A stretch of 64,000 nt of DNA from a plasmid. The DNA is taken from sequence record CP132210.1; one strand, given 5' to 3'. Position 1 is the stretch's first letter. Each line of letters starts with the position of its first letter. Made by a program: the position numbers and the translations under genes. Positions 3,953 through 57,635 of this stretch are shown here, piece after piece. Under the pieces are notes generated by a model. That model searched no databases, was not told the DNA's origin, and saw only the letters and a program-made list of their open reading frames with translations.

Positions 3953-4561
3953 ATGAAAACGATAAAGCGGTTCATCGTGTGGGTGAATTATGGCCTTGAG
4001 GGGTGGAGCATTTTCGGATCGAGTGATGACTGGGATGAGGCGTTATCTATCCGTTCGGAAGCGATCGACGAATGCAATATTGATGAGGATGACATCATCT
4101 TGGCGGAAAACAAAAACGAGCTGGTGGTGAAGCCAGCGGCCAAGCAAATGACGGAATGGCACCGGGAGCTGGAAGCCGTCCTAATGACCTTGGATGACTG
4201 CCAGATGGAATGTGACGGGATGACATGGGCAGTTAGTCACCTACTCAATGAAGCCGGTGTCCCGCATAACTGCATGTATGGCTTTGTACGAAACGAACAG
4301 ACCAAGGACATCGTGACACCGCATTTCTGGGTTGTCCTGGATGATGGGTGGTTGGTGGATCTGAGGCTGCGCATGTGGCTTGGCGATCACAACAACATTC
4401 CTCACGGGGTATTCCATCCCGATAACGAGCCTGGATTCTTCTACAAGGGGGATCCGGTTCAAAACCATAAAGGGATGAGACTGGGCAAGGCGGTCCTGGA
4501 CATTATGACCGAAGGAAAACTTTCACATGTGAAAGTTCCTGAACGACAAGACGGAGAGTGA
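3953..4561 (+). CDS. Hypothetical protein (202 aa, acidic N-terminus); first gene of a 6-7 gene same-strand cluster
   Basis: RBS AAGGGAG 6 nt before the ATG. No recognisable motifs. The 3' end contains a copy of the dispersed palindrome. Confidence 0.55.
   Translation: MKTIKRFIVWVNYGLEGWSIFGSSDDWDEALSIRSEAIDECNIDEDDIILAENKNELVVKPAAKQMTEWHRELEAVLMTLDDCQMECDGMTWAVSHLLNEAGVPHNCMYGFVRNEQTKDIVTPHFWVVLDDGWLVDLRLRMWLGDHNNIPHGVFHPDNEPGFFYKGDPVQNHKGMRLGKAVLDIMTEGKLSHVKVPERQDGE
4518..4537. promoter_or_regulatory. Dispersed palindrome copy 1 (AACTTTCACATGTGAAAGTT), intragenic
   Basis: Perfect 20-bp palindrome, one of 7 copies in the window. It encodes LSHVKV in the host ORF. Confidence 0.6.
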
Positions 4562-4565
4562 CAGC

Positions 4566-5087
4566 GTGGAACTGGATTACGACAAGTTAGTATCAAACAC
4601 ACATCTGGAGGCTGCTGGCTGGGGTATGGATGCCTTCAACCACTCCAACCCATTTGAGAGCCATGTCATCTATGTACGTGACTATCGTAACGATCACATC
4701 CGCCTGTTCACTATCAAGCAGGCTGATTTCGACACGATAAAGCAGCCACCCCACCTTACCTCCGACATGCTGGCCTCAGTGATTGCTGAGTTCATCTCAA
4801 AGGCAGCAAAAGGGACGTTGAATACGAAGGAGTCAAATACGCTGGCCCCCGCCTTGGTTGGTTATGCCAAATCAACAGAAACCTACCGGAGCTGGCGGAG
4901 AATGTCAGAGGTAGGAGAGCGACTGCATATGGTCATCAACATTTACGCCGGTTCTGGGCTGTTGAGGCCTTTCATTGCTCGTGCTCAGGAGACTGTACTG
5001 ACTACCCAAGAGGTGTTGGTCTTCTCATCGCAGGTTAAAGACCTGGATGTATCCAATCATCCTGAGTGGTTTAGGGGCCGGAGGTAG
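4566..5087 (+). CDS. Hypothetical protein (173 aa)
   Basis: GTG start with GGAGAG RBS. Tightly spaced after the upstream gene. Confidence 0.45.
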   Translation: MELDYDKLVSNTHLEAAGWGMDAFNHSNPFESHVIYVRDYRNDHIRLFTIKQADFDTIKQPPHLTSDMLASVIAEFISKAAKGTLNTKESNTLAPALVGYAKSTETYRSWRRMSEVGERLHMVINIYAGSGLLRPFIARAQETVLTTQEVLVFSSQVKDLDVSNHPEWFRGRR

Positions 5088-5089
5088 TC

Positions 5090-5611
5090 ATGAAGGCTGT
5101 TCTCTGGATATTCGTCTTGATCATCGCCCCTTTCGTCATTGCGAAAGTGGACCAGTGGCGCAAACGCGGCATTGGTGACACCTGGGCGTGGTGGAAATCA
5201 GAGAACATGCCTTATGAGCTGCGCTCGGCAACGCTGTTTTTGTCCGAACAGGACGTATCGACCACCCTGCCTGTGCCCATGCACGGCAGGGTTGACCAGG
5301 TGTATCAAACCAAAGGTGGGGTTCTCATCCCCCTGGACACAAAGCTGCGCCAAGCAAACCACATCTTTGAGTCGGACATTATCCAGCTCTCGGTTTACCG
5401 GGTAATTCTGTCACACAAGTACAAGGCTCCCGTTGCCAAGTACGGCTATGTCCGAACCGTTGTTGAAACAGCGGACGGGGATAGAGTCCGTTACATCAAG
5501 ACAAACCTTCTCAGTGAAAGAGAAGTGATCAAGCTGTGGCACCGCTACCAATCCATCCGCTATCGCAAGGTAAAACCTACCTGTTCCTGTGGCGGAAAGT
5601 TTCACATGTGA
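5090..5611 (+). CDS. Membrane-anchored NERD-like / PD-(D/E)xK nuclease-fold protein
   Basis: N-terminal TM helix. HGRVDQVYQTKGGVLIPLDTK fits the NERD/PD-(D/E)xK pattern (G-x-V-D ... hhhhh-D/E-x-K). C-terminal CSCGG. RBS GGAGG. Confidence 0.5.
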   Translation: MKAVLWIFVLIIAPFVIAKVDQWRKRGIGDTWAWWKSENMPYELRSATLFLSEQDVSTTLPVPMHGRVDQVYQTKGGVLIPLDTKLRQANHIFESDIIQLSVYRVILSHKYKAPVAKYGYVRTVVETADGDRVRYIKTNLLSEREVIKLWHRYQSIRYRKVKPTCSCGGKFHM

Positions 5612-5613
5612 AA
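5600..5613. promoter_or_regulatory. Dispersed palindrome copy 2 (TTTCACATGTGAAA core, 14-bp perfect), at the stop codon of the 5090 gene
   Basis: Same core as the other six copies. The flanks are imperfect. Confidence 0.5.
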
Positions 5614-5632
5614 GCTCTGGGTTGAATTAGGG

Positions 5633-5649
5633 TTGCCCGAATTGGGCAG
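5633..5649. promoter_or_regulatory. Activator-box-like inverted repeat copy 1 (TTGCCCGAATTGGGCAG)
   Basis: Member of the 7-copy TGCCCAAAATGGGCA family. It lies about 75 bp upstream of the 5708 start codon. Confidence 0.5.
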
Positions 5650-5707
5650 TTCGGCGGGGTTGCATTTTTGAGGAGTCCTGTAGGCTGGTTGCTATAGGAG
5701 GTGAATA

Positions 5708-6181
5708 GTGGCCCAGCTTAAACATAACCGCTTCGTCATGTTGGGTGCCTTGGTAGCGACTGTTGTAGCTGCCGCCAATGGTTTGAGTTTTATCACCCTT
5801 ATGGCTGGTGGAATAACCCTTCTCCAGTTCGTGGCATGGAAGCAACAAGATGCGATCCGGAGCCGGTTTAAAGCCGCGAAGGATGCGTTTGAAGCGTTGA
5901 ATGTCATAGCGTTTGACAAGCACTGGGTAGGCTCAACCGCGAAGGTCGCCAAGGTGTCGAGCACGAGCACCCCTCCCGAACGACTGGATAAGCCTTGGGC
6001 GGTGCAAGTTCTGGCCGTAACCAGTGGTGGGGCGTGGTTCGCAGTGGACCTGCAAGTGACCTGCACCGACAAGGTTCAGATGCTTTACCTCCACCGCCTT
6101 AGTGAAAAGACAGCAAAGACAATGCTGGCCTTCGATCTCGAAGTGTATGAGCGATTTTTCGGAAAACCTGATGTTGCATGA
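5708..6181 (+). CDS. Hypothetical membrane protein (157 aa)
   Basis: GTG start with AGGAGGTG RBS. N-terminal hydrophobic segment. Confidence 0.45.
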   Translation: MAQLKHNRFVMLGALVATVVAAANGLSFITLMAGGITLLQFVAWKQQDAIRSRFKAAKDAFEALNVIAFDKHWVGSTAKVAKVSSTSTPPERLDKPWAVQVLAVTSGGAWFAVDLQVTCTDKVQMLYLHRLSEKTAKTMLAFDLEVYERFFGKPDVA

Positions 6182-6192
6182 GGACAATGTGA

Positions 6193-6485
6193 TGGAAAAA
6201 GTCAAAAACGTAGATGCCGTTGAATTCACGGCAGCAGATAAGAAGGCGATGACCCATGCGGCTTACGCCCAGTGCTTCTTTGTTCTGGCCCAAGCAATAG
6301 CGTTTCCTTCCTTGGGGATGGCTGGCGCTATGGTTGCAGCTATGTGCGGCATGATGCCGTGGTTGACCAAGTTTGCCAAAGAGGCCCCCTCGAAAGCCTT
6401 TGGCATGGTGATGGCCTCGCTCGGCTTGGCACCTGTGTACGGAAAGCTCTGTGAGCTGGTGGTCAGTGCGATTCAGGGAGCTTGA
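6193..6485 (+). CDS. Small hydrophobic protein (about 97 aa)
   Basis: ATG at 6193. The product is Ala/Met-rich and hydrophobic. The start is uncertain. Confidence 0.35.
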
Positions 6486-7344
6486 GTTTATGGGGGTAGT
6501 ACGAGTTCCCTACCTCTTGGCTGAGCTGAAAGAACGCGGATGTGCTGATGAATCTGCTCTGGCGAAGGTTATGCAGCCAGGATGCCGGATTGAAGGGGAA
6601 GATCTGCGAAAGTTGGCCGCCAAGTTAGGGGTTGAAGTGTCCGAACTGGCACCTGCACCAGAGAACGAGGCCAATACCCGGTTCAAAGCAAAACTGAGAG
6701 GAGGTTTGGCCTCCTTTCTTTTTGAGTACGACGGCTGTTTCCGACATGCCGAAGGCTCCAGTCATGCAGAAATGTTGGGGATCGAGCAAGAAGACGATAT
6801 TGGCCTTCCGAGTAGAGCTGCGGACGCCATGCTCCTGGAGAAGACGCTTTATCAAGTAATCGCTCGGGCTAAGTACATGCTTGGCAAAATCGACGGCAAG
6901 TTTGTCAGGTCAGAACAGGCAATCGAGTTCCGTGAGCAGCTTGCTCCTGGGATCTTCAAGCCAGGTTATAGAGGCTTCCGATTTAAGGAGGCTGCTGCTG
7001 GTGATCTGCCTACTGTCATGATTGACGGTAGGAAGTTCAATTGCATTGCCAGCATAGCCAGAGCACATGGACTTGATCCGGTAACGGTGCGTAGGCGCAT
7101 TGCGGACACCGGGAAGGACGCAGACAAACTCACCAATGATGAGTGGAAACTCATCCTCGCCAAGAAGAAAGGTAAAGGGAAGCCCTTCACCTATCTGGAC
7201 AGGACCTACAGCAACATTGCTCAGTTCTGTCGTGAGCATCAGCTCAACACCAACCTTGTTTACCAGAAAGTCAAAGACCGGGCTGATAGCGCTGATGAAG
7301 AGTTCTGGGGACTGATAATCGAAACATGCAAAAGGAAAATCTAA
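6451..7344 (+). CDS. Hypothetical protein with C-terminal HTH-like segment (start uncertain: 6451 or 6490)
   Basis: Long ORF. GRKFNCIASIARAHGLDPVTVRRRI resembles an HTH. The stop abuts the sppA RBS. Confidence 0.45.
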   Translation: MSWWSVRFRELEFMGVVRVPYLLAELKERGCADESALAKVMQPGCRIEGEDLRKLAAKLGVEVSELAPAPENEANTRFKAKLRGGLASFLFEYDGCFRHAEGSSHAEMLGIEQEDDIGLPSRAADAMLLEKTLYQVIARAKYMLGKIDGKFVRSEQAIEFREQLAPGIFKPGYRGFRFKEAAAGDLPTVMIDGRKFNCIASIARAHGLDPVTVRRRIADTGKDADKLTNDEWKLILAKKKGKGKPFTYLDRTYSNIAQFCREHQLNTNLVYQKVKDRADSADEEFWGLIIETCKRKI

Positions 7345-8303
7345 TGGCAGAAAGCAAAGAGCTCCCCTGGGAGAGAGAGCTTATTGAGAAGTACATGTTC
7401 ACCCTGCATAAGGAGCAGGTGAAAGATCGCCGCTGGCGGGCTCTGTTGCGTGTGCTTCGCGCATCAGGTTTCGTGCTTCTCATGATCGGCTTCATCATCT
7501 TAGCGTCTAATCCGGGCGGGATGCCGTGGCAAAGCACCAAAGCAGGAGCCCCTCACACCGCGTATATCAACATCCGTGGTGAAATTGCTGCCGGTACACT
7601 GGCAGATGCTGATCACCTTATCCCGTCTATCCAAGCCGCATTCGACAACCCGAACTCCCAAGCCGTTGTACTTCGCATAAACAGCCCTGGCGGTAGCCCC
7701 GTTCAAGCTGGGCGGATTTATGAAGAAGTTAAAGCGCTGCGAGCGCTTCACCCAGAAAAAAAGGTCTACGCCATCATTGATGACATCGGTGCGTCTGGCG
7801 GCTACTACATCGCCTCTGCTGCGGACGAGATCTATGCTGACCGCGCAAGTCTGGTCGGCTCTATCGGCGTCATCAGCTCAGGGTTCGGATTCACTGGCCT
7901 GATGGACAAGCTCGGCATCGAGCGCCGGGCGATCACTTCCGGAGAGCACAAAGCTCTTCTCGATCCATTCTCCCCTCTTACCTCTGACATGAAGACATTT
8001 TGGGAGGGCGTTCTATCAAAAACCCACCAGCAGTTCATCGAGCGAGTGAAGGCTGGTCGAGGTGATCGACTGAAAGGCGACCAAGAGGTGTTTTCTGGGT
8101 TGCTTTGGAATGGGGAGCAGGCCAAAGACATTGGGTTGATTGATGGCTTGGGGAGTTTGAACTCCGTGGCGCGAGACGTCATCCACCAGAGCAACCTAGT
8201 GGACTACACCCCAACCGAAGACATCATCCGGCGACTGACCCAACGAGCGAAGCTCGAAGCCAGTTCCTTCGTGCAAGAACTCAGTGCTGTGAAAGTTTAC
8301 TGA
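7345..8303 (+). CDS. sppA: Signal peptide peptidase SppA (S49 family, short 36K-type)
   Basis: S49 protease core (INSPGGSP..., GASGGYYIA..., SLVGSIGV) after an N-terminal TM segment. AAGGAA RBS 7 nt upstream of the ATG at 7345. Confidence 0.8.
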
Positions 8304-8318
8304 TAGGAGAAGTTTGAC

Positions 8319-9179
8319 ATGCCAGAACAAAATACCAAATCGCTACGCCTCGGGGTTATTGCCGCCATTATTTTGGGACTCGCAGGAACCGGGTTCGGCA
8401 TTTACCAGTTCGTGAAAGAGAAGGAGCTGGCGCAAGAGATCGCTAACGTGAAGTCCACGGTCAACCAGGTGAAGGGCACCGAAGGTGTCACTTTCAAAAG
8501 CAAAGCAGAGTTTGAAGCTGCGGTGGCCGAAAGCATCAACAAGTTTGTCGCGCAGAAACAACAAGCCGACATCGATCAGAAGTATGCCAAGTTTGAGGCA
8601 GCTCCTGAGAAGGTCGATGACGGTAAACACATCTACGGGGCCCCTGGTGCTAGGTTCACACTGGTGGAGTTCTCCGATATGGAATGTCCGTTCTGCAAGC
8701 AATTCCACGACACACCCAAGCAAATTGTTGATGCCAGCAAAGGGAATGTGAATTGGCAGTGGAAGCATATGCCTCTCGATTTCCATAATCCGACAGCTCA
8801 CAGAGAAGCATTGGCCGCTGAGTGTATTGCTGAGCAGAAAGGCAACCGAGGCTTCTGGGTCTTCGTGAATGACATTTTCCATCACAGCCAAGGTAACGGT
8901 GCTGGGGTTGCTGACTTGGCCTCTGTTGTTACTGGTGTTGGCGCTGATCTGGATGAGTTCCGGGACTGCCTCGGTTCTGGCAAGCATGAAGACAAGGTTG
9001 AGGCTGACATCCAGAAGGCCAAGAGCTATGGCGTTAACGGGACTCCGGCCACATTTGTAGTGGACAACCAAACCGGCAAGAGTCAGCTCCTCGGCGGCGC
9101 TCAACCGGCACAAGCCATCATGGCTGTGATGCGAAAAATGATGATTGAGTCGCAGCCAGACGACTCAGCAAGCCAATAA
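8319..9179 (+). CDS. Membrane-anchored DsbA-like thiol:disulfide oxidoreductase
   Basis: N-terminal TM helix, coiled segment, then a thioredoxin fold with CPFC active site. Confidence 0.7.
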   Translation: MPEQNTKSLRLGVIAAIILGLAGTGFGIYQFVKEKELAQEIANVKSTVNQVKGTEGVTFKSKAEFEAAVAESINKFVAQKQQADIDQKYAKFEAAPEKVDDGKHIYGAPGARFTLVEFSDMECPFCKQFHDTPKQIVDASKGNVNWQWKHMPLDFHNPTAHREALAAECIAEQKGNRGFWVFVNDIFHHSQGNGAGVADLASVVTGVGADLDEFRDCLGSGKHEDKVEADIQKAKSYGVNGTPATFVVDNQTGKSQLLGGAQPAQAIMAVMRKMMIESQPDDSASQ

Positions 9180-9180
9180 G

Positions 9181-9198
9181 ACTTTCACATGTGAAAGT
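9181..9198. promoter_or_regulatory. Dispersed palindrome copy 3 (ACTTTCACATGTGAAAGT), intergenic
   Basis: Perfect 18-bp palindrome 2 bp after the dsbA-like stop. Confidence 0.6.
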
Positions 9199-9395
9199 CG
9201 GGTTCCTAAGGGGCCTGACTTTCGCTATGAGGTGTACCAATGGAGTTACAAAAAGCAAAAGAGGCTCTCGATAGCCATTACCCTCACAAGGCGTCAGCCT
9301 CTTTGAGGCTTGTCTTCCACCAGCCTGGAGGGATTGGTGAAACCCCTACCGTAGGGGGGAAAGCAATTCATGCTGGGTTTGATAGGGAGTGAGAA

Positions 9396-9842: not shown

Positions 9843-10357
9843 CGACGAATACTCAAAACGCGAACACCAACCGGGATATGTCTTTACGCAACATGCTCGT
9901 CCCCGCTCTTTTGTTCTACGTGATGATGACGGCCATGTTTCTGGGACTTGACGCATTCATGGATCAGACCACCAGCATGAACCTGCCATTCATGCCGTTC
10001 CTTGTTTCGATGGTGTGCTTTACCAGTGATGCACGTCGAGCGTGGGACTGGCGAAACGGGCTCAAAGTTGTGGTCGTATTGACTGTGGTAGCCATGCTGT
10101 TTGCATTCGCCTATCAGCTCGCGGTCGGAAAGGTGAGTCTCTTTGGGGTTGGTATATACCCGGTCACAGCCTTCCTTTTGTTGGCAATCACCTGGGTGAT
10201 TCGCGCTATCGGAAAGACGGCACCATTCCAGTTCCTTGGGAGGCGCTTGGCGCGAATTGGTGCATCGAAGTGGGTCCAACGCACCGTCGCAGTCATGGTG
10301 CTCGCTGGGGGGCTTGCCATCACCGTTTATGCGTACTGGCTTAACCAAGGTAGCTAA
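9839..10357 (+). CDS. Integral membrane protein (172 aa, about 5 TM)
   Basis: ATG overlaps the upstream TGA. Hydrophobic profile. Confidence 0.45.
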
Positions 10358-10587
10358 TGATGATTATTGCAACTAAGGGCGGCTTGCTGGTGGCCGCAGA
10401 ACTAATCAAGGAAGAGGCCGGGTACTGGCTACTAAAGCCTCGTGACCAAAAGATGCCGATCAGGGTGAATAAGCAGGATCACAATAAACGTGCGTTCACG
10501 CATATGGGCGACGCCCTTCGCTGGGCCGGTGATCCTGAGCTTGCCAAGCAGTTCGATGCTGAGGGGGAAATACATGCAAATTCGTGA
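10357..10587 (+). CDS. Small hypothetical protein (76 aa)
   Basis: TAATG overlap with the upstream stop. No motifs. Confidence 0.3.
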   Translation: MMIIATKGGLLVAAELIKEEAGYWLLKPRDQKMPIRVNKQDHNKRAFTHMGDALRWAGDPELAKQFDAEGEIHANS

Positions 10588-11431
10588 CGACATGACAAAG
10601 TTGTTTGAGGCATTCGGTGATCCAGAAGAAGTCACCCGAGAAATGCTTCTGGGACAGGCGGAACTCATTCATACGATCAGCGATAAGTGTCAGAGCACAG
10701 GCCTGTTTCTGGATAGTCAGAAGCGTTTCAACCAGTTCGTTCAAGAGATCGAGGCTGACGACAAGGTTGAGGATCGGTTGCTTCATGCTTGGTGCTGGGT
10801 GCTGGACCGAATAGTGAAGGCTCCAACATCCTTTCACATGGATGGTGCTGTAATTTTGACAATGCCTCTGGTTGCCAGATACCTACCTCCGGTTGAACGT
10901 GAGCCGGAAACTATCGTGGTGAATCTCGATGAGGACTACAAGGCTCCTGTTGGCAACCAAACGCTCTGCGAGCTCATTATGGAACGGCGGCATTGGCCGC
11001 GAGGGGCAACGTGTGCGACCCAAGAAGCGGACGGGGCAGTTCTCTACTGGGACGCCCCGGTTGATGTCGTTGAGGAAGGCAGAAAGGTCGCCGGTAAGCA
11101 CGGCATGATGGCCGAAGTCGGGTTAAAGCATCAGGTCGATGCTTGGTATGCAGACATGGATGAGACTCGGCTCGCAACCGACTGGAACTCCGCCGTCATC
11201 ACGCCCCACTGCTTGTTGCTTTCCTACCTGGATATGCTTCAAAGGAACAACGTTCCATTTTGTGAAGGAGTTCAACTGGCTGCTCAATGGGTGAAGCAAC
11301 TTGGAGGGGAGTCTCGTGAAGGCACCGAGGATGCGCCGGGAACTGAGGTTACGGTGCTTTCCCTGGGAAGAGCCACCGCTCATTGTTTTAAACCGTATCC
11401 AGACACAAAAAACTTCTATTACGAGGCCTAG
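10574..11431 (+). CDS. Hypothetical protein (285 aa)
   Basis: ATG preceded by GAGGGGGA. The longer upstream extension lacks an RBS. Confidence 0.4.
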   Translation: MQIRDDMTKLFEAFGDPEEVTREMLLGQAELIHTISDKCQSTGLFLDSQKRFNQFVQEIEADDKVEDRLLHAWCWVLDRIVKAPTSFHMDGAVILTMPLVARYLPPVEREPETIVVNLDEDYKAPVGNQTLCELIMERRHWPRGATCATQEADGAVLYWDAPVDVVEEGRKVAGKHGMMAEVGLKHQVDAWYADMDETRLATDWNSAVITPHCLLLSYLDMLQRNNVPFCEGVQLAAQWVKQLGGESREGTEDAPGTEVTVLSLGRATAHCFKPYPDTKNFYYEA

Positions 11432-11480
11432 GCCAAAGCTCTACCTACTGGGGGGAGCAAGTAATTTGGATGGAGTGATT

Positions 11481-11999: not shown

Positions 12000-12056
12000 C
12001 CACACACCAGTGTATACGGGTGTAAATAGTAACCAAGAAACCAAACAGGAATAACG

Positions 12057-12329: not shown

Positions 12330-12332
12330 TTG

Positions 12333-12411: not shown

Positions 12412-12715
12412 GGTGGGGGTGAGGTTGTCATCAACTCAGAAGGATGTTTTGTTCATTCTATATGCAATTGAAGTCGGTGGAAAAGCCGAGCCTGTACCAG
12501 GTATGAAAATGCTGTCGATGATCAACTCAGCTCGCCAGAGCTGTATTCATGGAACGAACTTCCGAACGTCATGCCACACGCTGGTGGATAATGGCTTATT
12601 GGACAAGTACCGGGACGAAACTTCTCTAAAGCTGGCCTTTAAGCTGACCGACGAGGGCAGGGGGCGTGCAGGAGAGATATACCGCAAAAGGTTGGAAGAA
12701 GAGCTGGAGAAGTAA
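12392..12715 (+). CDS. Putative small winged-helix transcriptional regulator
   Basis: 112-aa ORF downstream of the twin operators. The start is uncertain (12377, 12392 or 12401). Confidence 0.35.
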   Translation: MSDMNKGVGVRLSSTQKDVLFILYAIEVGGKAEPVPGMKMLSMINSARQSCIHGTNFRTSCHTLVDNGLLDKYRDETSLKLAFKLTDEGRGRAGEIYRKRLEEELEK

Positions 12716-13023
12716 TACGTCCCATAACGGGGAGTATCGAGTTAGTGTCATCCCTTAAAATAGAGTTTCATCCTTGCAAATAAAGTCTCACCCTACGTGG
12801 CTGGGCGAGCGAGTATGAGGCTGGCGAGTACAGGCTGCTGTGATCGCCGCAGCAAGCAACTGATCGAGGAAAAAATATGCCGATGAGTAACGACTTAAAG
12901 AAGGAAATTGAGCGTGGAATTCAGTTGCTCGAACTGCTGACTACGGCCAGGTTATCGAGTTTGAATGTGATCTTGGTGTCGTGACAGTAGAACCCAAGCA
13001 GCAACCGCTGCAAAGTTGAGGGG

Positions 13024-13398
13024 ATGTTTGTGGAACACACAGAAGGCACTTGGGTCGTCAACGAAAAGCACCCTGCTCGTAGCAACGACGCTGAGGTTAT
13101 CATCGAGCAGAAGGGGGGGAGCGCCCCTATCGCGATCTGCCCACCTATTTATGGTAGCCAGCAGAAAGCTAACGCCCGGCGCATCGTGGTCTGTCAGAAA
13201 ATCTGCCGAGGTTACTCGACAGATGAACTCGAACAGAGAGGGCTCGTTGCCCTCGTCGGTGACGAGCTGCTGAAACAGGAAGGACTGCTCAAGAGCATCA
13301 GGGAGAGAATCCGCGACTGGTCTTCGATGACCCCAGCGGACATGAAAGCCGCTCTGTCTGACATTGAGGACGAGATCTCCGCAGCCGAACTGCTGTGA
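13024..13398 (+). CDS. Hypothetical protein (124 aa)
   Basis: ORF only. Confidence 0.35.
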   Translation: MFVEHTEGTWVVNEKHPARSNDAEVIIEQKGGSAPIAICPPIYGSQQKANARRIVVCQKICRGYSTDELEQRGLVALVGDELLKQEGLLKSIRERIRDWSSMTPADMKAALSDIEDEISAAELL

Positions 13399-14267: not shown

Positions 14268-14293
14268 TGACAGCACAAACCTTGTCATCAAGC

Positions 14294-14320
14294 GGCCTTT
14301 ATGGCCGTTTTTTTGTTTCA
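14294..14320 (+). terminator. Intrinsic terminator
   Basis: AAGCGGCCtttatGGCCG followed by T7. Confidence 0.55.
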
Positions 14321-14350: not shown

Positions 14351-14395
14351 TTGCAGCATCATTTTATGATCGCTACAATCTTTCACATGTGAAAG
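14351..14395 (+). promoter_or_regulatory. parA promoter (TTGCAG-N17-TACAAT) with dispersed palindrome copy 4 (CTTTCACATGTGAAAG, 14380..14395) at the +1 region
   Basis: Good sigma70 hexamers with 17-bp spacing. The 16-bp perfect palindrome lies immediately downstream of the -10, about 45 bp before the parA start. The spacer carries the CAGCATCATTTTATGA motif. Confidence 0.6.
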
Positions 14396-14443
14396 TTTGG
14401 GGGTGGTCTGGATCACCTGCGAGAAACCAAAATAGAGGTGGGT

Positions 14444-15229
14444 ATGGCAAAAGTAATCAGCTTCGCCAACCAGAAAGGCGGGGTGGGTAAGAGTACCCTC
14501 TGTATCCAGCAGGCCTTTTATCTGGCGTTACAGAAGAAAAAGAAAGTGCTGGTCTTGGATATGGATGGTCAGGGGAACACATCCTCTCGACTGGCCCCCA
14601 GACGAGAGCTTGAGGATGACGACTATGAACCAATCCTCACTGGAACCAAAACCGCAGAGCTGTTCGCTTACGAGCTGGATGGTATTGAGGTCATGCACTG
14701 TCCTTGCGGGGCTGACCTCATTCACACGCCGAAGAACGATCCGGATCTGTTTGAGATGGAGGCTGTGCCTCTTGACCAGGCTATGAATCCGGCTCGCCAT
14801 TTGGCTGAGCTGTTTGAGAACTACGACTACGTGCTGATTGATTGCCCGCCTAGCCTTGGCAGAAAGCTGGTGGCTGCATTGGTGATGTCTACCCATGTGG
14901 CATGTCCAGTAAAACTCTCTGGCTTCGCTGTGGACGGCGTAGAAGGTCTCCTAAACACGATTATCGGTGTGCGCGAGGCATACAACCAGGATTTGGAGAT
15001 CCTGGGCATTGTGATCAACGACATGGATCGCTCTGTCAATCACGACAAGGCCCTCAAGGCGCTGGAGAACACAGTTCCGGATCTGCTGTTTGAGAACAAA
15101 ATTATGCACCGGCCTCCGCTCGATACGGCGACCACGGATGGCGTCCCTGTCTGGGAGCTTCGCTATGGACATGTCGCGGCCAAAGAGGTTGAGGCGGTGT
15201 TGGAAGAACTATTAGAGAAGGTGGGCTAA
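14444..15229 (+). CDS. parA: Partition ATPase ParA (Walker-type)
   Basis: KGGVGKST deviant Walker A. 261 aa. Immediately upstream of parB. Confidence 0.85.
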   Translation: MAKVISFANQKGGVGKSTLCIQQAFYLALQKKKKVLVLDMDGQGNTSSRLAPRRELEDDDYEPILTGTKTAELFAYELDGIEVMHCPCGADLIHTPKNDPDLFEMEAVPLDQAMNPARHLAELFENYDYVLIDCPPSLGRKLVAALVMSTHVACPVKLSGFAVDGVEGLLNTIIGVREAYNQDLEILGIVINDMDRSVNHDKALKALENTVPDLLFENKIMHRPPLDTATTDGVPVWELRYGHVAAKEVEAVLEELLEKVG

Positions 15230-15232: not shown

Positions 15233-16411
15233 ATGGCATTGAACAATTTAAAAGGCCTGTCCGAACTTGCTAAAGCCGCCAAAGGCAAGAAAGGCAAAGA
15301 GGTTCTTACCGTCCCTGTTGACGACGTTGTTTCCAAGGTACAGGTGCGTAAGCGCTTCCGTAACATTGAAGATCTGGCGGCCACCTTGCTGACCGAAGGG
15401 CAGCAGTCTCCGATCATCGTGTTTCCGAAGAACGAAGAAGGCAAGTTCGTTATCCAGAAAGGGGAGCGGCGTTGGAGGGCTTGTAAACACGCTGGTATTG
15501 AGACTATCGACCTGGTGGTTAATGATAAGGTCCAGAACAACCTGGACGAGACTGCTGGTGAGTTGATCGAAAACATCCAGCGGGATGATTTGACTCCGGT
15601 AGAGATTGCCGAGGCGTTAAACCTGTTTGTTGAAGAAGGTTGGAAACAAAAGGATATTGCTGATCGTCTTGGTAAGAATATCACTTTCGTATCTACGCAT
15701 CTGTCGTTGCTCAAGCTACCTGACTGTGTGCGCGAGTTGTACGATAATGAAGTATGTTCTGATACAGAAACCTTGAACAATCTCCGTCTTCTGTTTGAGC
15801 TTAACGAAGAAAGATGTCGCGCCGTCTGCGCTGTAGCTATGTCTGACGGGATTACCCGTAAACAAAGCCGTGAGATGTTGAATGATGCCAAACGCATCAA
15901 AGAAGAAATGGAAAAAGGTCCTCTGACGGGCTCCGACCAGAATGATAAACCTGGCGCTGGTAACACCGACGAGCAAGCCATTAACTCTGGGAGTGGCACA
16001 TCGGTACATATCGGAAATGGCGACCAGAGCCCTGCCAACATGGAACTGGAAGGGGGGGCAAATCTCGGTGGTCAGGGCGATGATGACCAAGACCATTTTC
16101 TTGACGAAGAGGGTAAGGGCAAAACTCCTGTCCGGCAGCCAGTTAACAATGGTAAGAGCAAAGATGAAGAAGGTGGCGATGCTCTTCCTCCTCTGCCGAA
16201 GGATAAGGAATGGAAGAACGTCAGGGCTGATAGTTTGATTTTTGCTGTCAACGTTAATCTGGATGGCGAGACCAAACGTGGAGTCATCATGACCGACCGT
16301 GTTGCTCTGGTTCCGGCTACAGTCTGGGTTAAAACGCTCGATGGCGAAGGCAAGGAAAAGCACGTTCATGTGCCTGTGTCAGACATTGAACTTCTGAGTG
16401 TTGAAGGCTAA
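15233..16411 (+). CDS. parB: Partition protein ParB (ParB/Srx N-domain plus HTH)
   Basis: GQQSPIIVF...GERRWRA ParB box II-type motif. 392 aa. Follows parA. Confidence 0.85.
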   Translation: MALNNLKGLSELAKAAKGKKGKEVLTVPVDDVVSKVQVRKRFRNIEDLAATLLTEGQQSPIIVFPKNEEGKFVIQKGERRWRACKHAGIETIDLVVNDKVQNNLDETAGELIENIQRDDLTPVEIAEALNLFVEEGWKQKDIADRLGKNITFVSTHLSLLKLPDCVRELYDNEVCSDTETLNNLRLLFELNEERCRAVCAVAMSDGITRKQSREMLNDAKRIKEEMEKGPLTGSDQNDKPGAGNTDEQAINSGSGTSVHIGNGDQSPANMELEGGANLGGQGDDDQDHFLDEEGKGKTPVRQPVNNGKSKDEEGGDALPPLPKDKEWKNVRADSLIFAVNVNLDGETKRGVIMTDRVALVPATVWVKTLDGEGKEKHVHVPVSDIELLSVEG

Positions 16412-16459: not shown

Positions 16460-16732
16460 ATGAAGATCTCACAGGACATGAAAAGAAAATTTGCTTTGGT
16501 GAATGCCCTGTCTAAAACGGAGAAGCCAAGTCTCCAGGACCTTCACAAGGCAACAGAAATTCCTGAATCAACGATCAAGAGACAGTTGTCTGCTCTGCGT
16601 GATGAGTTCGGAATGAATATATTGTTCGTCAGGGAGTCTACCGGCGAACGGGGGGCCACCGGCTACTATATGCTGACAGACTGGGGGATCTTAGACAGGT
16701 CTTCGTTCTTGAACCGGTACGGAAAGATGTAA
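16460..16732 (+). CDS. Small winged-helix DNA-binding protein following parAB (third partition-operon gene)
   Basis: HTH-like LQDLHKATEIPESTIKRQLSALRDE. About 90 aa. Same operon as parAB. Confidence 0.5.
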   Translation: MKISQDMKRKFALVNALSKTEKPSLQDLHKATEIPESTIKRQLSALRDEFGMNILFVRESTGERGATGYYMLTDWGILDRSSFLNRYGKM

Positions 16733-17652: not shown

Positions 17653-17787
17653 AACAAAGCTCCTTAATTGCTTGATTGTGTTGTAAGGGCTGCAACGAAG
17701 GTCGAAGAGCGATGCGGCCCTTATTTATGATTATTACAGCATCATAAAGTAATATCAACAGATAATAAAATGGTGTCTAGAATCAAA

Positions 17788-17805
17788 ACTTTCACATGTG
17801 AAAGT
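17788..17805. promoter_or_regulatory. Dispersed palindrome copy 5 (ACTTTCACATGTGAAAGT)
   Basis: Perfect 18-bp palindrome in the divergent promoter region between the MTase-like gene and the 17970 operon. Confidence 0.6.
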
Positions 17806-17856
17806 CTCTGCGCAGCTCACTACGGGCACCCCAACCTCCCAAATAACTTTCCAATC

Positions 17857-17871
17857 TGCCCAAAATGGGAA
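17857..17871. promoter_or_regulatory. Activator-box-like inverted repeat copy 2 (TGCCCAAAATGGGAA)
   Basis: About 100 bp upstream of the 17970 start. Confidence 0.45.
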
Positions 17872-28578: not shown

Positions 28579-28594
28579 TGCCCAAATTGGACAG
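28579..28594. promoter_or_regulatory. Activator-box-like inverted repeat copy 3 (TGCCCAAATTGGACAG) in the traI/topB-operon divergent region
   Basis: About 90 bp upstream of the traI start and about 75 bp from the lipoprotein start. Confidence 0.5.
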
Positions 28595-35522: not shown

Positions 35523-36184
35523 TGAGCAAAAGCGATTTCTTTTTTGGCAAAGTGTATAACGGAAGCGATGGAGCCACTCTAGGACTTAGTGATTTGGAAC
35601 CTCTGACGCGAAAGGTGTCAGCAGCGTTCTTCACCGCACAACTGAATAGAATGTTGAAAGAGCATGGTGGCCGGTTAACGATCAGCGATGGAACCTCATA
35701 TCCCCGCTTTTGGAGCTTCATCGACAAGGTTGATCCGGAGCAGGTTGGTTTCGTCGAGATCTACGCTCGTCAGGATGTTAACGATAGTGTTGAAGCAACA
35801 CTGGCGTGTGACATCGTTTTGGTAAATGGTGTAATAACCGTTAAATCTCACTGGTGTGCCTACAAAGACGTCCGAGCTGGCGAAGTGATCTCCACATTAC
35901 TCGTCCCTTTGCATTTGAAAGCCCTACAGGACAAGGCTTATATCCGTTGGGATAATGGCGAAACGGAACCGCTGCTTCAAGATGACGATCACAAGGCTGA
36001 GCTTGAGAGGGTATTTAAGGTTTCCAAGTACCCATCGGCTATGACCTGGGGCGATACGGTTGACCAAAATGCCAAGGCGTACATGATGGACCTTGAGTGC
36101 GCTACGGACGTTGGTCGTCGCGGTGTCTCGTCAGAACAAGCATGGGATGCTTATCAGGAACTCCGACACAACAAAACAATGTGA
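35522..36184 (+). CDS. Hypothetical protein (220 aa)
   Basis: ORF, followed by a hairpin and a palindrome copy. Confidence 0.45.
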   Translation: MSKSDFFFGKVYNGSDGATLGLSDLEPLTRKVSAAFFTAQLNRMLKEHGGRLTISDGTSYPRFWSFIDKVDPEQVGFVEIYARQDVNDSVEATLACDIVLVNGVITVKSHWCAYKDVRAGEVISTLLVPLHLKALQDKAYIRWDNGETEPLLQDDDHKAELERVFKVSKYPSAMTWGDTVDQNAKAYMMDLECATDVGRRGVSSEQAWDAYQELRHNKTM

Positions 36185-36207
36185 AACAAGCGGCCATTGG
36201 CCGCTTT

Positions 36208-36229
36208 AAACTTTCACATGTGAAAGTTT
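36208..36229. promoter_or_regulatory. Dispersed palindrome copy 6 (AAACTTTCACATGTGAAAGTTT, 22-bp perfect)
   Basis: Follows the GCGGCCAttGGCCGC hairpin. It is the longest copy. Confidence 0.6.
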
Positions 36230-36272: not shown

Positions 36273-36288
36273 TGCCCAAAATGGGCAG
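36273..36288. promoter_or_regulatory. Activator-box-like inverted repeat copy 4 (TGCCCAAAATGGGCAG) upstream of the traL operon
   Basis: 90 bp upstream of the small ORF at 36363 that leads the traL-traA operon. Confidence 0.5.
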
Positions 36289-46828: not shown

Positions 46829-46844
46829 GTATCGCGCTGGAGTT

Positions 46845-50085: not shown

Positions 50086-50099
50086 CCAGGGAGACTGTA

Positions 50100-52175: not shown

Positions 52176-52849
52176 TTTTTTCCCCGGCTTTACAGCAAAT
52201 TAAGGACGTCGGAACAGGCTCGTTTGTTGCGGCTGAGGTTTTGGCTCGTTGGTGCTGCGAAGGCCAGATGCTTACTCCATCGGAGTTGTCATCACCTCCT
52301 AATTGGGGCTTGGTAGATATTGAGATTGCCAGGTTCATTCAAGATAACCTTTGCCATTGCAGTGAGGAATATCAGGCTATTTTTGTTAATGTGTCAGAGC
52401 AGACTTTGAAATCTGACATCATCTTTCATACGTGGGCTCAGATAATTAGGGCAATCACGAAGAATTATCCATTAAGGCTTGTCATCGAGATCACTGAGGG
52501 GGTTCAAGACAAATCTCTAGCATTTAGATGGAGCTCTCTTACTGCGATGGGGGTTAATCTAGCTCTTGATGATTATGGAGACAAAAACTCTTCAATGGCT
52601 CGCTTGCTTAGCTACGACTGGAATTATTGCAAATTCGATGCGAGAAAACTGAGTTCATTTGAAGATTATTCAGCCATTCTTCATTGCCGACGTAAAGGCA
52701 TCCATCTTATTGCGGAACAGGTTGAGACACCACCATTGGAAGAGAATGCCAAATTACTTGGTTTGGTATGGCAACAAGGTTTCCTTCATGGGAAGCCGAC
52801 TGTTATAGAGAAAAGTTTGAATCGAGCAAAGGTCTTACCATTATGCTGA
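52172..52849 (+). CDS. Stand-alone EAL-domain protein (putative c-di-GMP phosphodiesterase)
   Basis: EVLARW (EAL signature variant), EITE, DDYG, KFD and AEQVET...QGFLHGKP motifs in canonical order. 225 aa. Embedded between traW and traU. Confidence 0.7.
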   Translation: MIFSPALQQIKDVGTGSFVAAEVLARWCCEGQMLTPSELSSPPNWGLVDIEIARFIQDNLCHCSEEYQAIFVNVSEQTLKSDIIFHTWAQIIRAITKNYPLRLVIEITEGVQDKSLAFRWSSLTAMGVNLALDDYGDKNSSMARLLSYDWNYCKFDARKLSSFEDYSAILHCRRKGIHLIAEQVETPPLEENAKLLGLVWQQGFLHGKPTVIEKSLNRAKVLPLC

Positions 52850-53847: not shown

Positions 53848-53864
53848 TCGTTAACTCCGTCAAT

Positions 53865-53889
53865 GAAAAGCCGTGCGTTGCACGGCTTT
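53865..53889 (+). terminator. Intrinsic terminator after traU
   Basis: AAAAGCCGTGCgttGCACGGC followed by TTTT. Confidence 0.55.
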
Positions 53890-53919
53890 TGCATTTCAAG
53901 ATGTATGTTTTACGCAGAG

Positions 53920-53935
53920 TGCCCAAAATGGGCCA
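53920..53935. promoter_or_regulatory. Activator-box-like inverted repeat copy 6 (TGCCCAAAATGGGCCA) upstream of traN
   Basis: About 70-80 bp upstream of the traN start. Confidence 0.5.
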
Positions 53936-53997
53936 CTAGGCATACTAACGTGGATTTCTCTCTGGGGTAGCATCTGAGTGTCAGAATGGAGATGAAT

Positions 53998-56736
53998 ATG
54001 CGAAGTCACACCCTAGTCATGAGAACCGTCGCCTCATTGCTTTCCATAACCATTTCCGCGTTGCCGGTACATGGTTATGCCAGTAGTTCGAGTGCGGCGG
54101 ATATAGCCACTGTAGGCAAAGATGCTCAATCATTTGGACAGAGCTTATCTAACTCATTCAAGTCAAACTCTGGAACTGTTCAGGATGGCACTATTTCAAT
54201 GCCTACGTTGAAAGATGGTCAGTTCCAAATGAATGGTGGTGAACAAGTTAATGTTAATGATCTGTTCCCAGGGACAAGTAGTAAAAATAACAAACCAGAC
54301 AGCTATTATTTCCCCGACGCCAATAAGCCAAGCGTTGATAACCTACAGGGCATGTATGATTCTGGTAGCGACATGGATAATGTTGGCAACTCTTCTCAGG
54401 GGACACTCTGGTCCGATGCTAATAGCTCTAATCCATCAATTTCGGGTGCTGCATATAAAGTCCTGCTTGATGCAACAAATCGTTCTCGCCCGGACTTTTC
54501 TAATGATCCAGTTTTGAATCTAAGTAAAAAAACCTATGAAAATATGGATCTTATTGCTGGTGGTTTTGGTGATTGTTCTGCTGAAACAACTATTAATGAA
54601 GGAACCATAAATGCTCACGTCCCTGAGTATGAGCGTTGTCAGCGAGTAGTAAAACCTGCTGGTGATTGCGATATTATCCATTCCTTGGGAATAACAAGTG
54701 ATGTTCAATATGTATATGTCGGTTCTGTAGGTCGAACTTGGGTCACTGTTAAATTTGACCTTAAAAATGGTACGTGGGAACCAATTGCACCCTCTGATGG
54801 TGCTCAAAAAGTCGCGCAAATACCAAAAGTAGATTTCAATGCCATGTGCAGTGGTGCCGTTAATTTTAAGACCGATCTTGTTGGTTCTTGGGATTGGGCT
54901 GAGCATGGCCTACCCGGAAAGATCGACTCGACTGTTATCTATAGAGTTAACCAATATCCAACTTGTGAGAATGGTTTGGTTGGGGTTGTACAGATCCAGG
55001 ACACTACGGAATCAGATGACCTAGAGTGGATTCTTGGTGGGAAGTTTGCTTTTCGATTCACCAAGCAAGTTGAGGACCAATGGACTCCGCAGACTTGTAT
55101 TGATGATGCAAAGAAATTGAATGATGGGTTTTGTAAGGGAACGATAAGTGTTACTGAGGGGGCCAGAAATGAAAACGACTGTATTACAGTTAATGGCTCC
55201 AGCATTTGCCCTGGTGATCCATTCTTCAATTCACTGAAACCATCGCCGTTGCCAGGTATTCCAAGGCTCGCACAGAAAGTCAGGGTATCAAAACTCCAGT
55301 GCGACTTTAATGTGGGGCAAATGGAATGCTGGACTGACCCTCAAGGGGTAAAACATTGCCCTAACAATGATGGTGGAAATGTAAACAGTTGCGCGGCACT
55401 AGAAGGCAATCCTAAATGTGGCTTCATCAGCTCTGAGTGTATTGGTGGTGCCCAAGGCCCATCGGGCCAATGTTATGTATTTAAGGATACTTACGATTGT
55501 GGTGTGGATGTCAAAGTCCCAACTCTCGATAAGAACACTGAGTACAAGTGTGGTGGTCCGATCCGTTGCATGGGGGATGATTGCTTAGCAATAAATAAAT
55601 CTCAGAGTACCGATTTCGCCAGAGCAACAGCCTTACTTAATGCTGCTCAGTTTTTGACACAAGATATGAAGTGTACCGATAGCGCAACCGAAGAGGGGGG
55701 GGATGGAAATATTGATCAAGGATGTACGGTTTTTGGCGGCGAATCCGGTGAATGTAAAATAGCTGTAGGTGGTGTATCGGATTGCTGTGAAAAGCCTTCA
55801 AATATATCTCTAGCTGATTACCTAAACTTGATCATGGCTGTTCCCAAGCTAGATGGTGCGGTAATGGGGTTACAAGATGGTAATGCCATGAAGGGCGCTT
55901 ATCAGGTTCTTCGAGATCCTGTAATGGAAGGTTGGACTGAGGTAACAAAGCCATTTACGAGCTATATTGAAAATATATCCGGTTCTGTGGACTCATTTAT
56001 GGAACCAGTGAACCAGGTGATGGATCAACTTATTGAGCAGCTAAAAGAGCAGGTTAAAGAAGTCATGATGGACGTCTTTAAATCTGCTGGGCAAGATGCC
56101 GCGACAGAGCAAGCTGCTGCTGCCGCATCGGAACAAGCCGCAGAACAGATGATGCAGACCGCAACGACATGGCTCAGTACAGCGATGACAATCTATACGG
56201 TCTATGTTGTCACAATGGTAATGATCCAAATGATTTATAAATGTGAGGAGTCTGAGTTCACAATGAACGCCAAAAGGGCGTTGAAGAATTGCACTTATGT
56301 TGGTTCTTATTGCAAATCCAAAGTATTGGGCGCTTGCATAGAGGAGCGTGAGGCTTATTGCTGCTTTAACTCTCCTCTTTCCAGAATAATTCAAGAGCAA
56401 ATTCGGCCACAACTCGGCCAATCTTTTGGTGATCCCAAAAGTCCCCAGTGTGGTGGTATTTCTCTGGAGAAAATTGCAGACATAGATTGGAACAAAGTTA
56501 ATTTGGATGAGTGGTTGGGGATTTTGCAGCAAAATGGCAAGTTCCCTACGCCTGGATCAATAAATATTGACTCGCTAACTGGCGCTGGTAGTGACTTCAA
56601 TATTAATGGGGATCGAAAGAATGCCCAAGAGAGAGCGTTACAGAGGCTTGATGGAATAGACATCGACGCCAAGAGGAAAGAGGCAACAAATCGCGTTAAT
56701 CCTCAAACAGGCGCGCCAAATAATAATGGTGGATAA
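53998..56736 (+). CDS. traN: TraN (Cys-rich mating-pair stabilisation protein)
   Basis: Signal peptide. Many Cys residues in the C-terminal half. About 912 aa. Confidence 0.8.
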   Translation: MRSHTLVMRTVASLLSITISALPVHGYASSSSAADIATVGKDAQSFGQSLSNSFKSNSGTVQDGTISMPTLKDGQFQMNGGEQVNVNDLFPGTSSKNNKPDSYYFPDANKPSVDNLQGMYDSGSDMDNVGNSSQGTLWSDANSSNPSISGAAYKVLLDATNRSRPDFSNDPVLNLSKKTYENMDLIAGGFGDCSAETTINEGTINAHVPEYERCQRVVKPAGDCDIIHSLGITSDVQYVYVGSVGRTWVTVKFDLKNGTWEPIAPSDGAQKVAQIPKVDFNAMCSGAVNFKTDLVGSWDWAEHGLPGKIDSTVIYRVNQYPTCENGLVGVVQIQDTTESDDLEWILGGKFAFRFTKQVEDQWTPQTCIDDAKKLNDGFCKGTISVTEGARNENDCITVNGSSICPGDPFFNSLKPSPLPGIPRLAQKVRVSKLQCDFNVGQMECWTDPQGVKHCPNNDGGNVNSCAALEGNPKCGFISSECIGGAQGPSGQCYVFKDTYDCGVDVKVPTLDKNTEYKCGGPIRCMGDDCLAINKSQSTDFARATALLNAAQFLTQDMKCTDSATEEGGDGNIDQGCTVFGGESGECKIAVGGVSDCCEKPSNISLADYLNLIMAVPKLDGAVMGLQDGNAMKGAYQVLRDPVMEGWTEVTKPFTSYIENISGSVDSFMEPVNQVMDQLIEQLKEQVKEVMMDVFKSAGQDAATEQAAAAASEQAAEQMMQTATTWLSTAMTIYTVYVVTMVMIQMIYKCEESEFTMNAKRALKNCTYVGSYCKSKVLGACIEEREAYCCFNSPLSRIIQEQIRPQLGQSFGDPKSPQCGGISLEKIADIDWNKVNLDEWLGILQQNGKFPTPGSINIDSLTGAGSDFNINGDRKNAQERALQRLDGIDIDAKRKEATNRVNPQTGAPNNNGG

Positions 56737-56739
56737 ACG

Positions 56740-56768
56740 AAGGGGCCCTAAAGGCCCCTTTTCTTTGT
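56740..56768. terminator. Bidirectional terminator between traN and the convergent lipoprotein gene
   Basis: GAAGGGGCCctaaaGGCCCC followed by TTTTCTTT. Confidence 0.6.
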
Positions 56769-56774
56769 CGCTGT

Positions 56775-57635
56775 TCATGCTTCTGGGTAAACAAATAACT
56801 CAGCCTTTCCCTGACCAAGAAGGTAAGGGAACCCAACTTTGTCGCCACTCTCCAGTTCCACTGATTTTGGAGCAAGGTAAAGATAGGACCAAGCTGGTAG
56901 CTGTTTGCTAATAGCGGCGTAGATCGCTTGCTGAGGAGCATGGCTTGCTGTTCCATTGCCGACTTTCACAAAGTTGTAGTCAGTCTCATGTCCTGATGTG
57001 AAGGCATACGCTGTGCCTTGGACACCAGAGACAAAATCAGGCGCGGTCCCAATGCGAGGCTCCACGATATTTACTTTGACTGAACACATGTCAGCCACCT
57101 TACTTTGTCCGTTCACCCACGTAGGGCAACCCCATTCGTTCTTGTAGAACTGATAGGTGAGACGACCGTCTTTGTCATACAGAAGTGTGAAATTCGCACC
57201 CAAGTCAGTCAGAGCTGACTCGATGGAAACTTTCACATGTGAAAGAAGTTTGCCCTGAGCATCTGCCGGTGACGCAGCTTCTTTAGCAGGCATCCAGGCG
57301 ATCAAGCTATTGCGAGCTCCGTGCTGTTTAGGACCGATGGCCCAGTTGGCAAGGTTGACTAAGCCACCTTGCCAGTCGGTCATACCAACCTGAGGGGACA
57401 TATAGCCAGACAGCACGTAGGCAGCACCAAACGTTTTGGTGTCGGTCAAGCGTTCCAGCTTGTCACGCGGAACCGAAGCGTCTTGAATGCCTGTTACCAG
57501 GCCACCGGCCTCTGCGATGTTGTAAGCGCGACTGTGATTGGTTTTGTACGCTGCGGGTTCGTAACTACTGGTGGATGCACAGCCAGACAGAGCTGCTACA
57601 ACTAGAGCCACAGTGGTGATTGAAGCATGTTTCAT
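56775..57635 (-). CDS. Lipoprotein (286 aa)
   Basis: VVAALSGCAST lipobox. Palindrome copy 7 lies inside the CDS. Confidence 0.55.
   Translation of the reverse strand: MKHASITTVALVVAALSGCASTSSYEPAAYKTNHSRAYNIAEAGGLVTGIQDASVPRDKLERLTDTKTFGAAYVLSGYMSPQVGMTDWQGGLVNLANWAIGPKQHGARNSLIAWMPAKEAASPADAQGKLLSHVKVSIESALTDLGANFTLLYDKDGRLTYQFYKNEWGCPTWVNGQSKVADMCSVKVNIVEPRIGTAPDFVSGVQGTAYAFTSGHETDYNFVKVGNGTASHAPQQAIYAAISKQLPAWSYLYLAPKSVELESGDKVGFPYLLGQGKAELFVYPEA
57231..57246. promoter_or_regulatory. Dispersed palindrome copy 7 (CTTTCACATGTGAAAG), intragenic
   Basis: Perfect 16-bp palindrome inside the lipoprotein CDS. It again encodes LSHVKV. Confidence 0.55.

Follow-up and report, generated by a model that had tools for sequence, protein, structure and literature searches.

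Seven dispersed palindromes in the backbone of an IncA plasmid are very probably parS sites of its parAB053 partition system

The DNA analyzed here is a stretch of 64,000 nucleotides from a plasmid (sequence record CP132210.1), referred to as the window, and the element in question is a palindrome that occurs in it seven times and that we connect with the parA-parB-053 operon of the same plasmid. The window represents the backbone of a multidrug-resistance plasmid of the IncA type, which belongs to the IncA/C family, starting at repA and continuing with the maintenance region and then with the MOBH/MPF-F transfer genes. Its parA-parB region is 100% identical to that of plasmids typed as IncA and 90-95% identical to that of about 1,000 others, including plasmids typed as IncC such as pAR060302.

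The three genes of the operon lie on the plus strand. The first, parA (14444..15229), encodes a short Soj-like Walker ATPase of 261 amino acids with the Walker A motif KGGVGKS at residues 11-17 and an AAA_31 domain at residues 2-186; its closest solved structures are Soj/ParA proteins of 255-276 amino acids. The preliminary description of this sequence had assigned the system to type Ia. That type is defined by an N-terminal DNA-binding domain of ParA, which also mediates its autoregulation, and the assignment is ruled out because ParA here is short and has no such helix-turn-helix (HTH) domain at its N terminus. The second gene, parB (15233..16411), encodes a protein of 392 amino acids with ParB_N and HTH_ParB/KorB domains (PF02195, E = 2.2e-13; PF08535, the KorB DNA-binding domain, E = 4.3e-38), whose best match among solved structures is KorB of RK2 (8qa8, E = 1.6e-20), followed by Noc and Spo0J. 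Its cytidine triphosphate (CTP)-binding motifs GERRWRA and ENIQR align to those of KorB and Noc and are invariant in ParB homologues, and by these domains and motifs ParB is a predicted member of the CTP-binding ParB family (ParB/Spo0J/KorB/Noc). The third gene, open reading frame (ORF) 053 (16460..16732), encodes a winged-helix protein of 90 amino acids (HTH_43).

The 14-bp core of the palindrome, TTTCACATGTGAAA, is present in seven exact copies starting at positions 4521, 5600, 9183, 14381, 17790, 36212 and 57231. A search of the whole window for the core with up to two mismatches returned nothing beyond these seven, and dinucleotide-preserving shuffles searched at the same tolerance gave a mean of 0.44 core matches and a maximum of 2. 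All seven sites also match the 18-mer ACTTTCACATGTGAAAGT with 0-2 mismatches, against an expectation of 0.05. The full site is a 22-bp inverted repeat consisting of AAAC, the invariant core and GTTT; the right flank carries the G in all seven sites and the T in five. Perfect palindromy extends over 20 bp at 4518-4537, 14 bp at 5600-5613, 20 bp at 9180-9199, 16 bp at 14380-14395, 18 bp at 17788-17805, 22 bp at 36208-36229 and 16 bp at 57230-57245. All copies listed in the preliminary description thus exist, while two of its boundaries had to be corrected (from 9181-9198 to 9180-9199 and from 57231-57246 to 57230-57245). The other 50 kb of a sister IncA plasmid contain five further copies, which brings the number to about 12 per plasmid.

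Four copies are intergenic and three are embedded in coding sequences, where they encode the peptides LSHVKV or KFHM, a reading of the coding context with which our inspection of the sequence agrees. The site at 4517..4538 (AAAC TTTCACATGTGAAA GTTC; by gene order the R55_6 site) is located at the 3' end of ORF 3953-4561, where it encodes KLSHVKVP in a stretch that ends 23 nt before the end of the reading frame. The site at 5596..5617 (AAAG, core, GCTC) lies on the stop codon of ORF 5090-5611, encodes GKFHM and includes the TGA within the palindrome. Its flanks are the poorest match of the seven, and it is the sole copy with a full AC/GT dinucleotide on neither side. The third coding copy, at 57227..57248 (AAAC, core, GAAG; by order the R55_91 site), lies within the minus-strand ORF 56775-57635 and encodes LLSHVKVS on that strand. 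Among the intergenic copies, the site at 9179..9200 (AGAC, core, GTCG) follows dsbA so closely that its 22-mer begins at the final base of the dsbA stop codon, and the site at 17786..17807 (AAAC, core, GTCT) precedes ORF 17970 (by order R55_55/vcrx036), which starts 180 bp downstream. The site at 36208..36229 is a perfect 22-bp consensus, AAACTTTCACATGTGAAAGTTT, and by order lies in the context of the vcrx068 promoter. Terminator-like GC-rich hairpins are found at 36184-36207 directly upstream of this site (GCGGCCATTGGCCGCTTT) and at 14290-14310 upstream of the parA promoter (AAGCGGCC...GGCCGTTTTTTT); they may insulate the sites or promoters against read-through transcription.

The remaining intergenic copy (14377..14398; AATC, core, GTTT) is a candidate operator as well as a candidate parS site. 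A putative parA promoter (PparA) can be read off the plus strand at 14351..14379, with TTGCAG at 14351-14356, a 17-nt spacer and TACAAT at 14374-14379. The 22-bp site shares 3 nt with the -10 box and spans the expected +1 position, and the ATG of parA at 14444 follows 49 bp after the palindrome. Both the promoter elements and the position of the site at +1 had been described correctly, but the promoter cannot be called textbook, as its -35 hexamer agrees with TTGACA at only three of six positions and a consensus promoter scan did not call it. The elements are kept in IncC plasmids and in diverged homologous loci. The location of a site at the promoter had been considered the classic arrangement of type Ia systems; it is seen more typically in type Ib systems and with KorB.

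A full-text literature search for the core sequence returned a single paper, by Murányi, Szabó, Acsai and Kiss (Nucleic Acids Res 2024; PMC10954446), and no later paper on these parS sites was found in the library searched. In that study, which started from two repeats of Salmonella genomic island 1 (SGI1) that destabilise IncC plasmids, the same core with the same AAAC/GTTT flanks was described as parS of the IncC plasmid R55. The motif is therefore already known, and what we report is a rediscovery of the parS published in 2024 for the sister IncC plasmids. R55 carries 14 copies, one overlapping the -10 box of the parAB053 promoter and 13 others scattered over the backbone; most IncC plasmids have 12-14 copies and IncA plasmids 10-14 (PMC10954446). 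In electrophoretic mobility shift assays (EMSA), purified ParB, the product of the second ORF of parAB053, specifically bound the PparA site, a consensus site and a parS-like site of SGI1, while a 4-bp insertion in the centre abolished binding and the 14-bp core alone was not bound (PMC10954446). One of the probes was described as identical to the AAAC-core-GTTT consensus (PMC10954446), to which the site at 36212 of the window corresponds exactly. An unstable replicon carrying parS was stabilised only if ParA and ParB were both supplied, and 053 was needed for the stability of the IncC plasmid and dispensable for parS-mediated stabilisation (PMC10954446). Whole IncC plasmids supplied in trans repressed PparA 8-11-fold and parAB053 alone did so less, implying that tight repression involves an extra backbone factor outside the par operon (PMC10954446).

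To relate the window to these results, it was compared with the IncC plasmid pAR060302 and the IncA plasmid pRA1. Each of the seven sites has a positional counterpart in pAR060302; for the first five, pRA1 has one as well. IncA and IncC agree at 98 of 98 core positions and at 149 of 154 positions of the 22-mers, while identity is only 82% in the 150 bp to either side, so that the sites are held constant in drifting surroundings. This is most pronounced at site 9183, where 20 of 22 positions agree and the surrounding flanks are merely 60% identical, whereas the 22-mers at 4521 and at PparA are unchanged (22/22 each against pAR060302); the PparA region as a whole is 95.5% identical to that of IncC. 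ParB shares 91% of its residues with IncC ParB overall and about 98% over residues 1-230, which include the DNA-binding part, the differences lying mostly in an acidic linker. The window thus resembles the R55 system (PMC10954446) in its core, its flanks, its dispersed layout, the copy at the -10 box of PparA, the seven positions and its ParB, and differs from it in belonging to the IncA lineage, in having GC instead of GT in the right flank of site 5600, and in lacking two sites.

These two IncC-only sites (pAR060302 positions 12490 and 17814), and likewise two sites found only in pRA1 (16772 and 19350), are missing from the window because the variable DNA that bears them is missing (compared region ~12715-13030). 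The number of parS copies would accordingly track the content of the accessory regions, as missing copies go together with missing variable genes. Among the latter are higBA and the gene of the IncC 'ParB-like regulator', which was considered as the missing co-repressor; since it does not occur within these 64 kb, it is not a universal partner of the system.

Taken together, these data make it very probable that the seven palindromes are the centromere (parS) sites with which the parAB053 system partitions the IncA plasmid. The core with its AAAC/GTTT-type flanks, a copy number within the range of about 10-14, the presence of a parA-parB-053 operon with a site overlapping the -10 region of PparA, and the agreement in position with reference IncC and IncA plasmids all conform to the parS of the IncA/C family. 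The earlier proposal that the copies are plasmid-wide ParB loading sites is borne out by the EMSA and the parS-dependent stabilisation reported for IncC (PMC10954446), combined with the same positions, identical cores and the near-identity of ParB over residues 1-230. Similarly, the idea that the promoter copy serves as an autoregulatory operator of parA agrees with the repression measured for IncC PparA (PMC10954446) and with its unchanged 22-mer. According to this model, ParB, a KorB-like HTH-type protein of the CTP family, would recognise the 22-bp inverted repeat and build partition complexes from the dispersed loading sites, which the short ParA ATPase would then separate at cell division, while the copy over the -10 box and +1 of PparA would double as the operator for autoregulation of the operon.

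The elements of this model come from two sources. ParB binding, the need for flanks and for an intact central spacing, parS-dependent stabilisation and PparA repression are taken from the literature on IncC; the presence, statistics and conservation of the sites, the domains and motifs of the proteins, the co-occurrence of ParB and the absence from host chromosomes come from our own analysis. Because the positions are the same, the cores identical and the DNA-binding region of ParB nearly so, we infer that the IncC result applies to the IncA window; the strength of binding at each individual site is likewise an extrapolation. Several points weigh against this reading. All binding and stability experiments were made with IncC R55, and possibly not all of the about 12 sites would be needed for partition. 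CTP binding, clamping and sliding by ParB are predicted from its two motifs only. Site 5600 may be weakened, or even non-functional, in IncA, because its flanks lack the left C and the right T and published ParB binding fails on the core alone; site 57231 likewise lacks the right-flank T. Finally, autoregulation of PparA by ParB alone is incomplete, since tight repression needs a factor from outside the par operon.

In addition to the R55 system, two classes of partition systems invite comparison. The ParA/ParB pair resembles that of chromosomal ParABS (Spo0J/ParB with parS TGTTTCACGTGAAACA, and Soj/ParA) as well as the KorB/IncC2 pair. With the chromosomal systems it shares an HTH-type ParB with GxxRxxA and ENxQR motifs, a short Soj-like ParA, several dispersed parS sites and the half-site TTTCAC/GTGAAA. 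This last correspondence had been pointed out before, together with the larger centre, and by inspection the half-sites are indeed separated by two extra central base pairs (AT), which alter their spacing. Further differences are the flanks, the third gene 053 and the distribution of the sites around the whole replicon rather than in a cluster near the origin. The type Ia systems (parABS of P1, sopABC of F) have in common with the window a large HTH-type ParB and a Walker-type ParA; in addition to the missing N-terminal domain of ParA, they differ in that the centromere here is not one cluster downstream of parB.

To follow the palindrome beyond the IncA/C family, one genome per species (596 Gb in total) was scanned for the exact 18-mer, yielding at least 120 blocks of 8 kb. 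Among the matches listed, single occurrences in Heimdallarchaeota, Roseburia, Bacillus and Clostridia are at about chance level (roughly nine are expected for an 18-mer palindrome in 596 Gb). The other listed matches are overwhelmingly from Gammaproteobacteria, often with several copies per contig, as in Vibrio mytili, V. albus, V. sinensis, Shewanella profunda, Marinobacter, Idiomarina and Photorhabdus, and many of the blocks bear diverged homologues of IncA/C backbone genes. Homologues of ORF 3953-4561 with 45-53% protein identity carry the palindrome at the same 3'-end position in other genera, in loci that had been selected for carrying the exact 18-mer. Outside IncA/C the invariant core occurs on at least 90 contigs, mostly of marine Gammaproteobacteria (Vibrio, Shewanella, Marinobacter, Idiomarina, Pseudoalteromonas, Photorhabdus), and a few Betaproteobacteria with the core are also among the matches listed (Cupriavidus pampae, a Limnohabitans metagenome-assembled genome (MAG) and Paenalcaligenes).

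When the 8-kb blocks around exact 18-mers were searched with ParB by tblastn, parB turned up in one block only. As these blocks are too short for co-occurrence, contigs were fetched via ParB homologues instead. The contigs of homologues with 62, 57, 51 and 46% identity contain 3, 14, 3 and 4 exact cores, respectively, within ~21 kb, and three of these four loci have a copy 50-63 bp upstream of parA that immediately follows a -10-like box. Across the ParB homologues, the HTH segment and the CTP motifs show little or no variation. Since homologues down to 46% identity keep both the core and the DNA-binding segment, this ParB clade is linked to the palindrome independently of the literature. The fourth locus, from Marinobacter sp. 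G11 (ParB 51%; ~9080-9212), has three exact cores within 5 kb and no palindrome at its parA promoter, and the promoter-overlapping autoregulatory site is therefore not universal in the family. The gene 053 stays directly 3' of parB across ParB homologues of 46-100% identity, the window included, with homologues in the loci L127 (11288-11560), L129 (11190-11483), L130 (11209-11487) and L020 (7313-7582); in L130, the parA-parB-053 module resides on a Rep_3-type replicon. A Pseudohongiella MAG (10001-11041) encodes an orphan chromosomal ParB/KorB homologue in a metabolic context with a conserved DNA-binding segment, and within 21 kb of it neither parA nor 053 nor a copy of the palindrome was found.

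At the equivalent of site 5600, at the end of the orf5090 homologue, two IncA/C relatives contain eight to ten tandem repeats of ~48 bp, each with a parS core (Edwardsiella anguillarum contig_17, 5065-5462; E. coli plasmid CP100851, 5001-5395). The flanks are GGTC..CACG instead of AAAC..GTTT. Such an array looks like a sopC-style clustered centromere that might have grown from one dispersed site. The wider pool of elements with the core and parAB053 suggests that they could cross-react in partition or be hijacked.

The frequency of the palindrome in the host, which the preliminary description had named as a check, was surveyed by matching a 30-mer with the consensus site at its centre to 5,426 complete E. 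coli genomes. A match was obtained in 144 genomes (2.7%), at 2,906 places on plasmids (96%) and 118 on chromosomes, with a median of 24 places per positive genome, equivalent to 12 palindromic sites as both strands were counted. The motif is thus missing from 97% of the genomes and otherwise almost always located on plasmids. The chromosomal cases are few, with 1-6 sites each, which fits integrated SGI1-type islands or plasmid segments as reported before (PMC10954446). Together with the species-wide scan, this survey rules out a host repeat of the repetitive extragenic palindromic (REP) type. A role as RNA hairpin or terminator was also ruled out, as the hairpins at the sites are weak and inconsistent: their energies range from -4 to -10 kcal/mol, only one site has a following T run, and the z-scores against shuffled sequence at 5600 (+0.19), 17790 (-1.32) and 57231 (-0.22) do not set these three apart.

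Of the other explanations, the one that survives best is compatible with a partition role and would add to it. The sites may act as operators of a KorB-like global network, in which ParB represses or gates nearby promoters, notably the AcaCD-activated ones of conjugation, possibly with a KorA-like partner as in RK2; we regard this as possible, although the balance of the evidence is somewhat against it. The combination of a KorB DNA-binding domain (PF08535) in ParB with seven operator-like sites dispersed over 53 kb is what such a network would contain, KorB is the nearest solved structure, and one site overlaps PparA. The IncC study itself proposed a role as KorB-like global regulator, pointing to four backbone promoters at which parS closely precedes an AcaCD box; knocking out the parS beside the AcaCD box of the SGI1 S004-rep promoter lowered the SGI1 copy number, and the extra factor acting on PparA is in line with the same idea (PMC10954446).

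The arrangement described for IncC is also found in the window, where AcaCD-like boxes on the plus strand follow three of the seven sites at distances of 20-53 bp (permutation p ~0.001-0.002 under a uniform null). These are a palindrome at 5634..5648 (TGCCCGAATTGGGCA), 20 bp downstream of site 5600 and conserved in IncC, a motif at 17857..17871 (TGCCCAAAATGGGAA), 53 bp downstream of site 17790, and a palindrome at 36273..36287 (TGCCCAAAATGGGCA), 47 bp downstream of site 36212. Further AcaCD-like boxes of the TGCCCAAAATGGGCA type occur in the window at 28579, 36926, 41203, 53920 and 58478. The juxtaposition recurs in diverged elements, as 20 of 193 unique sites in the loci listed have an AcaCD-like box within 140 bp, compared with ~4.4 expected from the box density, with 12 of these 20 boxes at a preferred spacing of 13-28 bp from the core. 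However, both parS and AcaCD boxes favour intergenic DNA and many of the recurrences may be orthologous promoters, which would inflate the statistics, and the pairing is therefore suggestive only as a sign of regulation. Moreover, repression or activation by ParB has been published for PparA alone, the sites include three within coding sequence and one whose next gene is 213 bp away, the gene of the IncC 'ParB-like regulator' is missing from the window, and no KorA homologue was identified, although no systematic search for one was made.

The comparison with RK2/RP4 (IncP-1), with its KorB, the operator OB and IncC (ParA), has two sides as well. Both systems combine a KorB-domain ParB with CTP motifs, a short ParA and about a dozen dispersed sites, some of them at promoters, and in both a second factor is probably needed for tight repression. 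In contrast, the RK2 operator is a 13-bp sequence (TTTAGCSGCTAAA) while the site here has a 14-bp core and 22 bp in full, alignable similarity is confined to part of the N-terminal half (query residues 44-199), and regulation has here been demonstrated at PparA only, with IncC data. A more specific version, in which ParB would be a KorB-style CTP clamp that is loaded 20-50 bp upstream of AcaCD boxes and gates conjugation and maintenance promoters together with an extra backbone factor, is put forward tentatively and seems rather unlikely at present.

By contrast, it is highly unlikely that a different plasmid protein, such as the winged-helix protein 053 or another HTH regulator, binds the palindrome and that ParB binding is incidental. 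The constant position of 053 beside parB, its requirement for IncC stability and the need of an added factor for full PparA repression would be in keeping with such a binder. However, specific shifts of the sites in EMSA were obtained with purified ParB alone, 053 takes no part in parS-dependent stabilisation (PMC10954446), and the DNA-binding segment of ParB does not vary in any element that has the invariant core. A repeat of host-wide or structural nature (REP-like element, RNA hairpin or terminator, or ACATGT-containing restriction/modification target) is extremely improbable despite the perfect palindromy, the T run after site 36212 and the two sites right after stop codons, given the absence from nearly all E. 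coli genomes, the multi-copy matches listed on contigs with IncA/C-like backbone genes (the singles in archaea and Firmicutes being near chance), the conservation over 14-22 bp, well past a 6-bp enzyme site, and the copy at +1 of a promoter.

Our comparative data lend modest support and widen the host range, leaving the published picture unchanged. IncA/C plasmids rank among the main carriers of carbapenemase and multidrug-resistance genes, and the parS sites are a handle for their stable inheritance and for their hijacking and expulsion by SGI1-type islands, so that knowledge of the sites bears on incompatibility-based plasmid curing and on the conflict between plasmids and islands. In Vibrio, Shewanella, Marinobacter and other marine genera, the core accompanies ParB homologues with identities as low as 46%, in one case on a different replicon type. 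If gating of promoters by ParB were true, segregation, copy state and transfer would be linked to one another in elements of a family that extends well beyond IncA/C.

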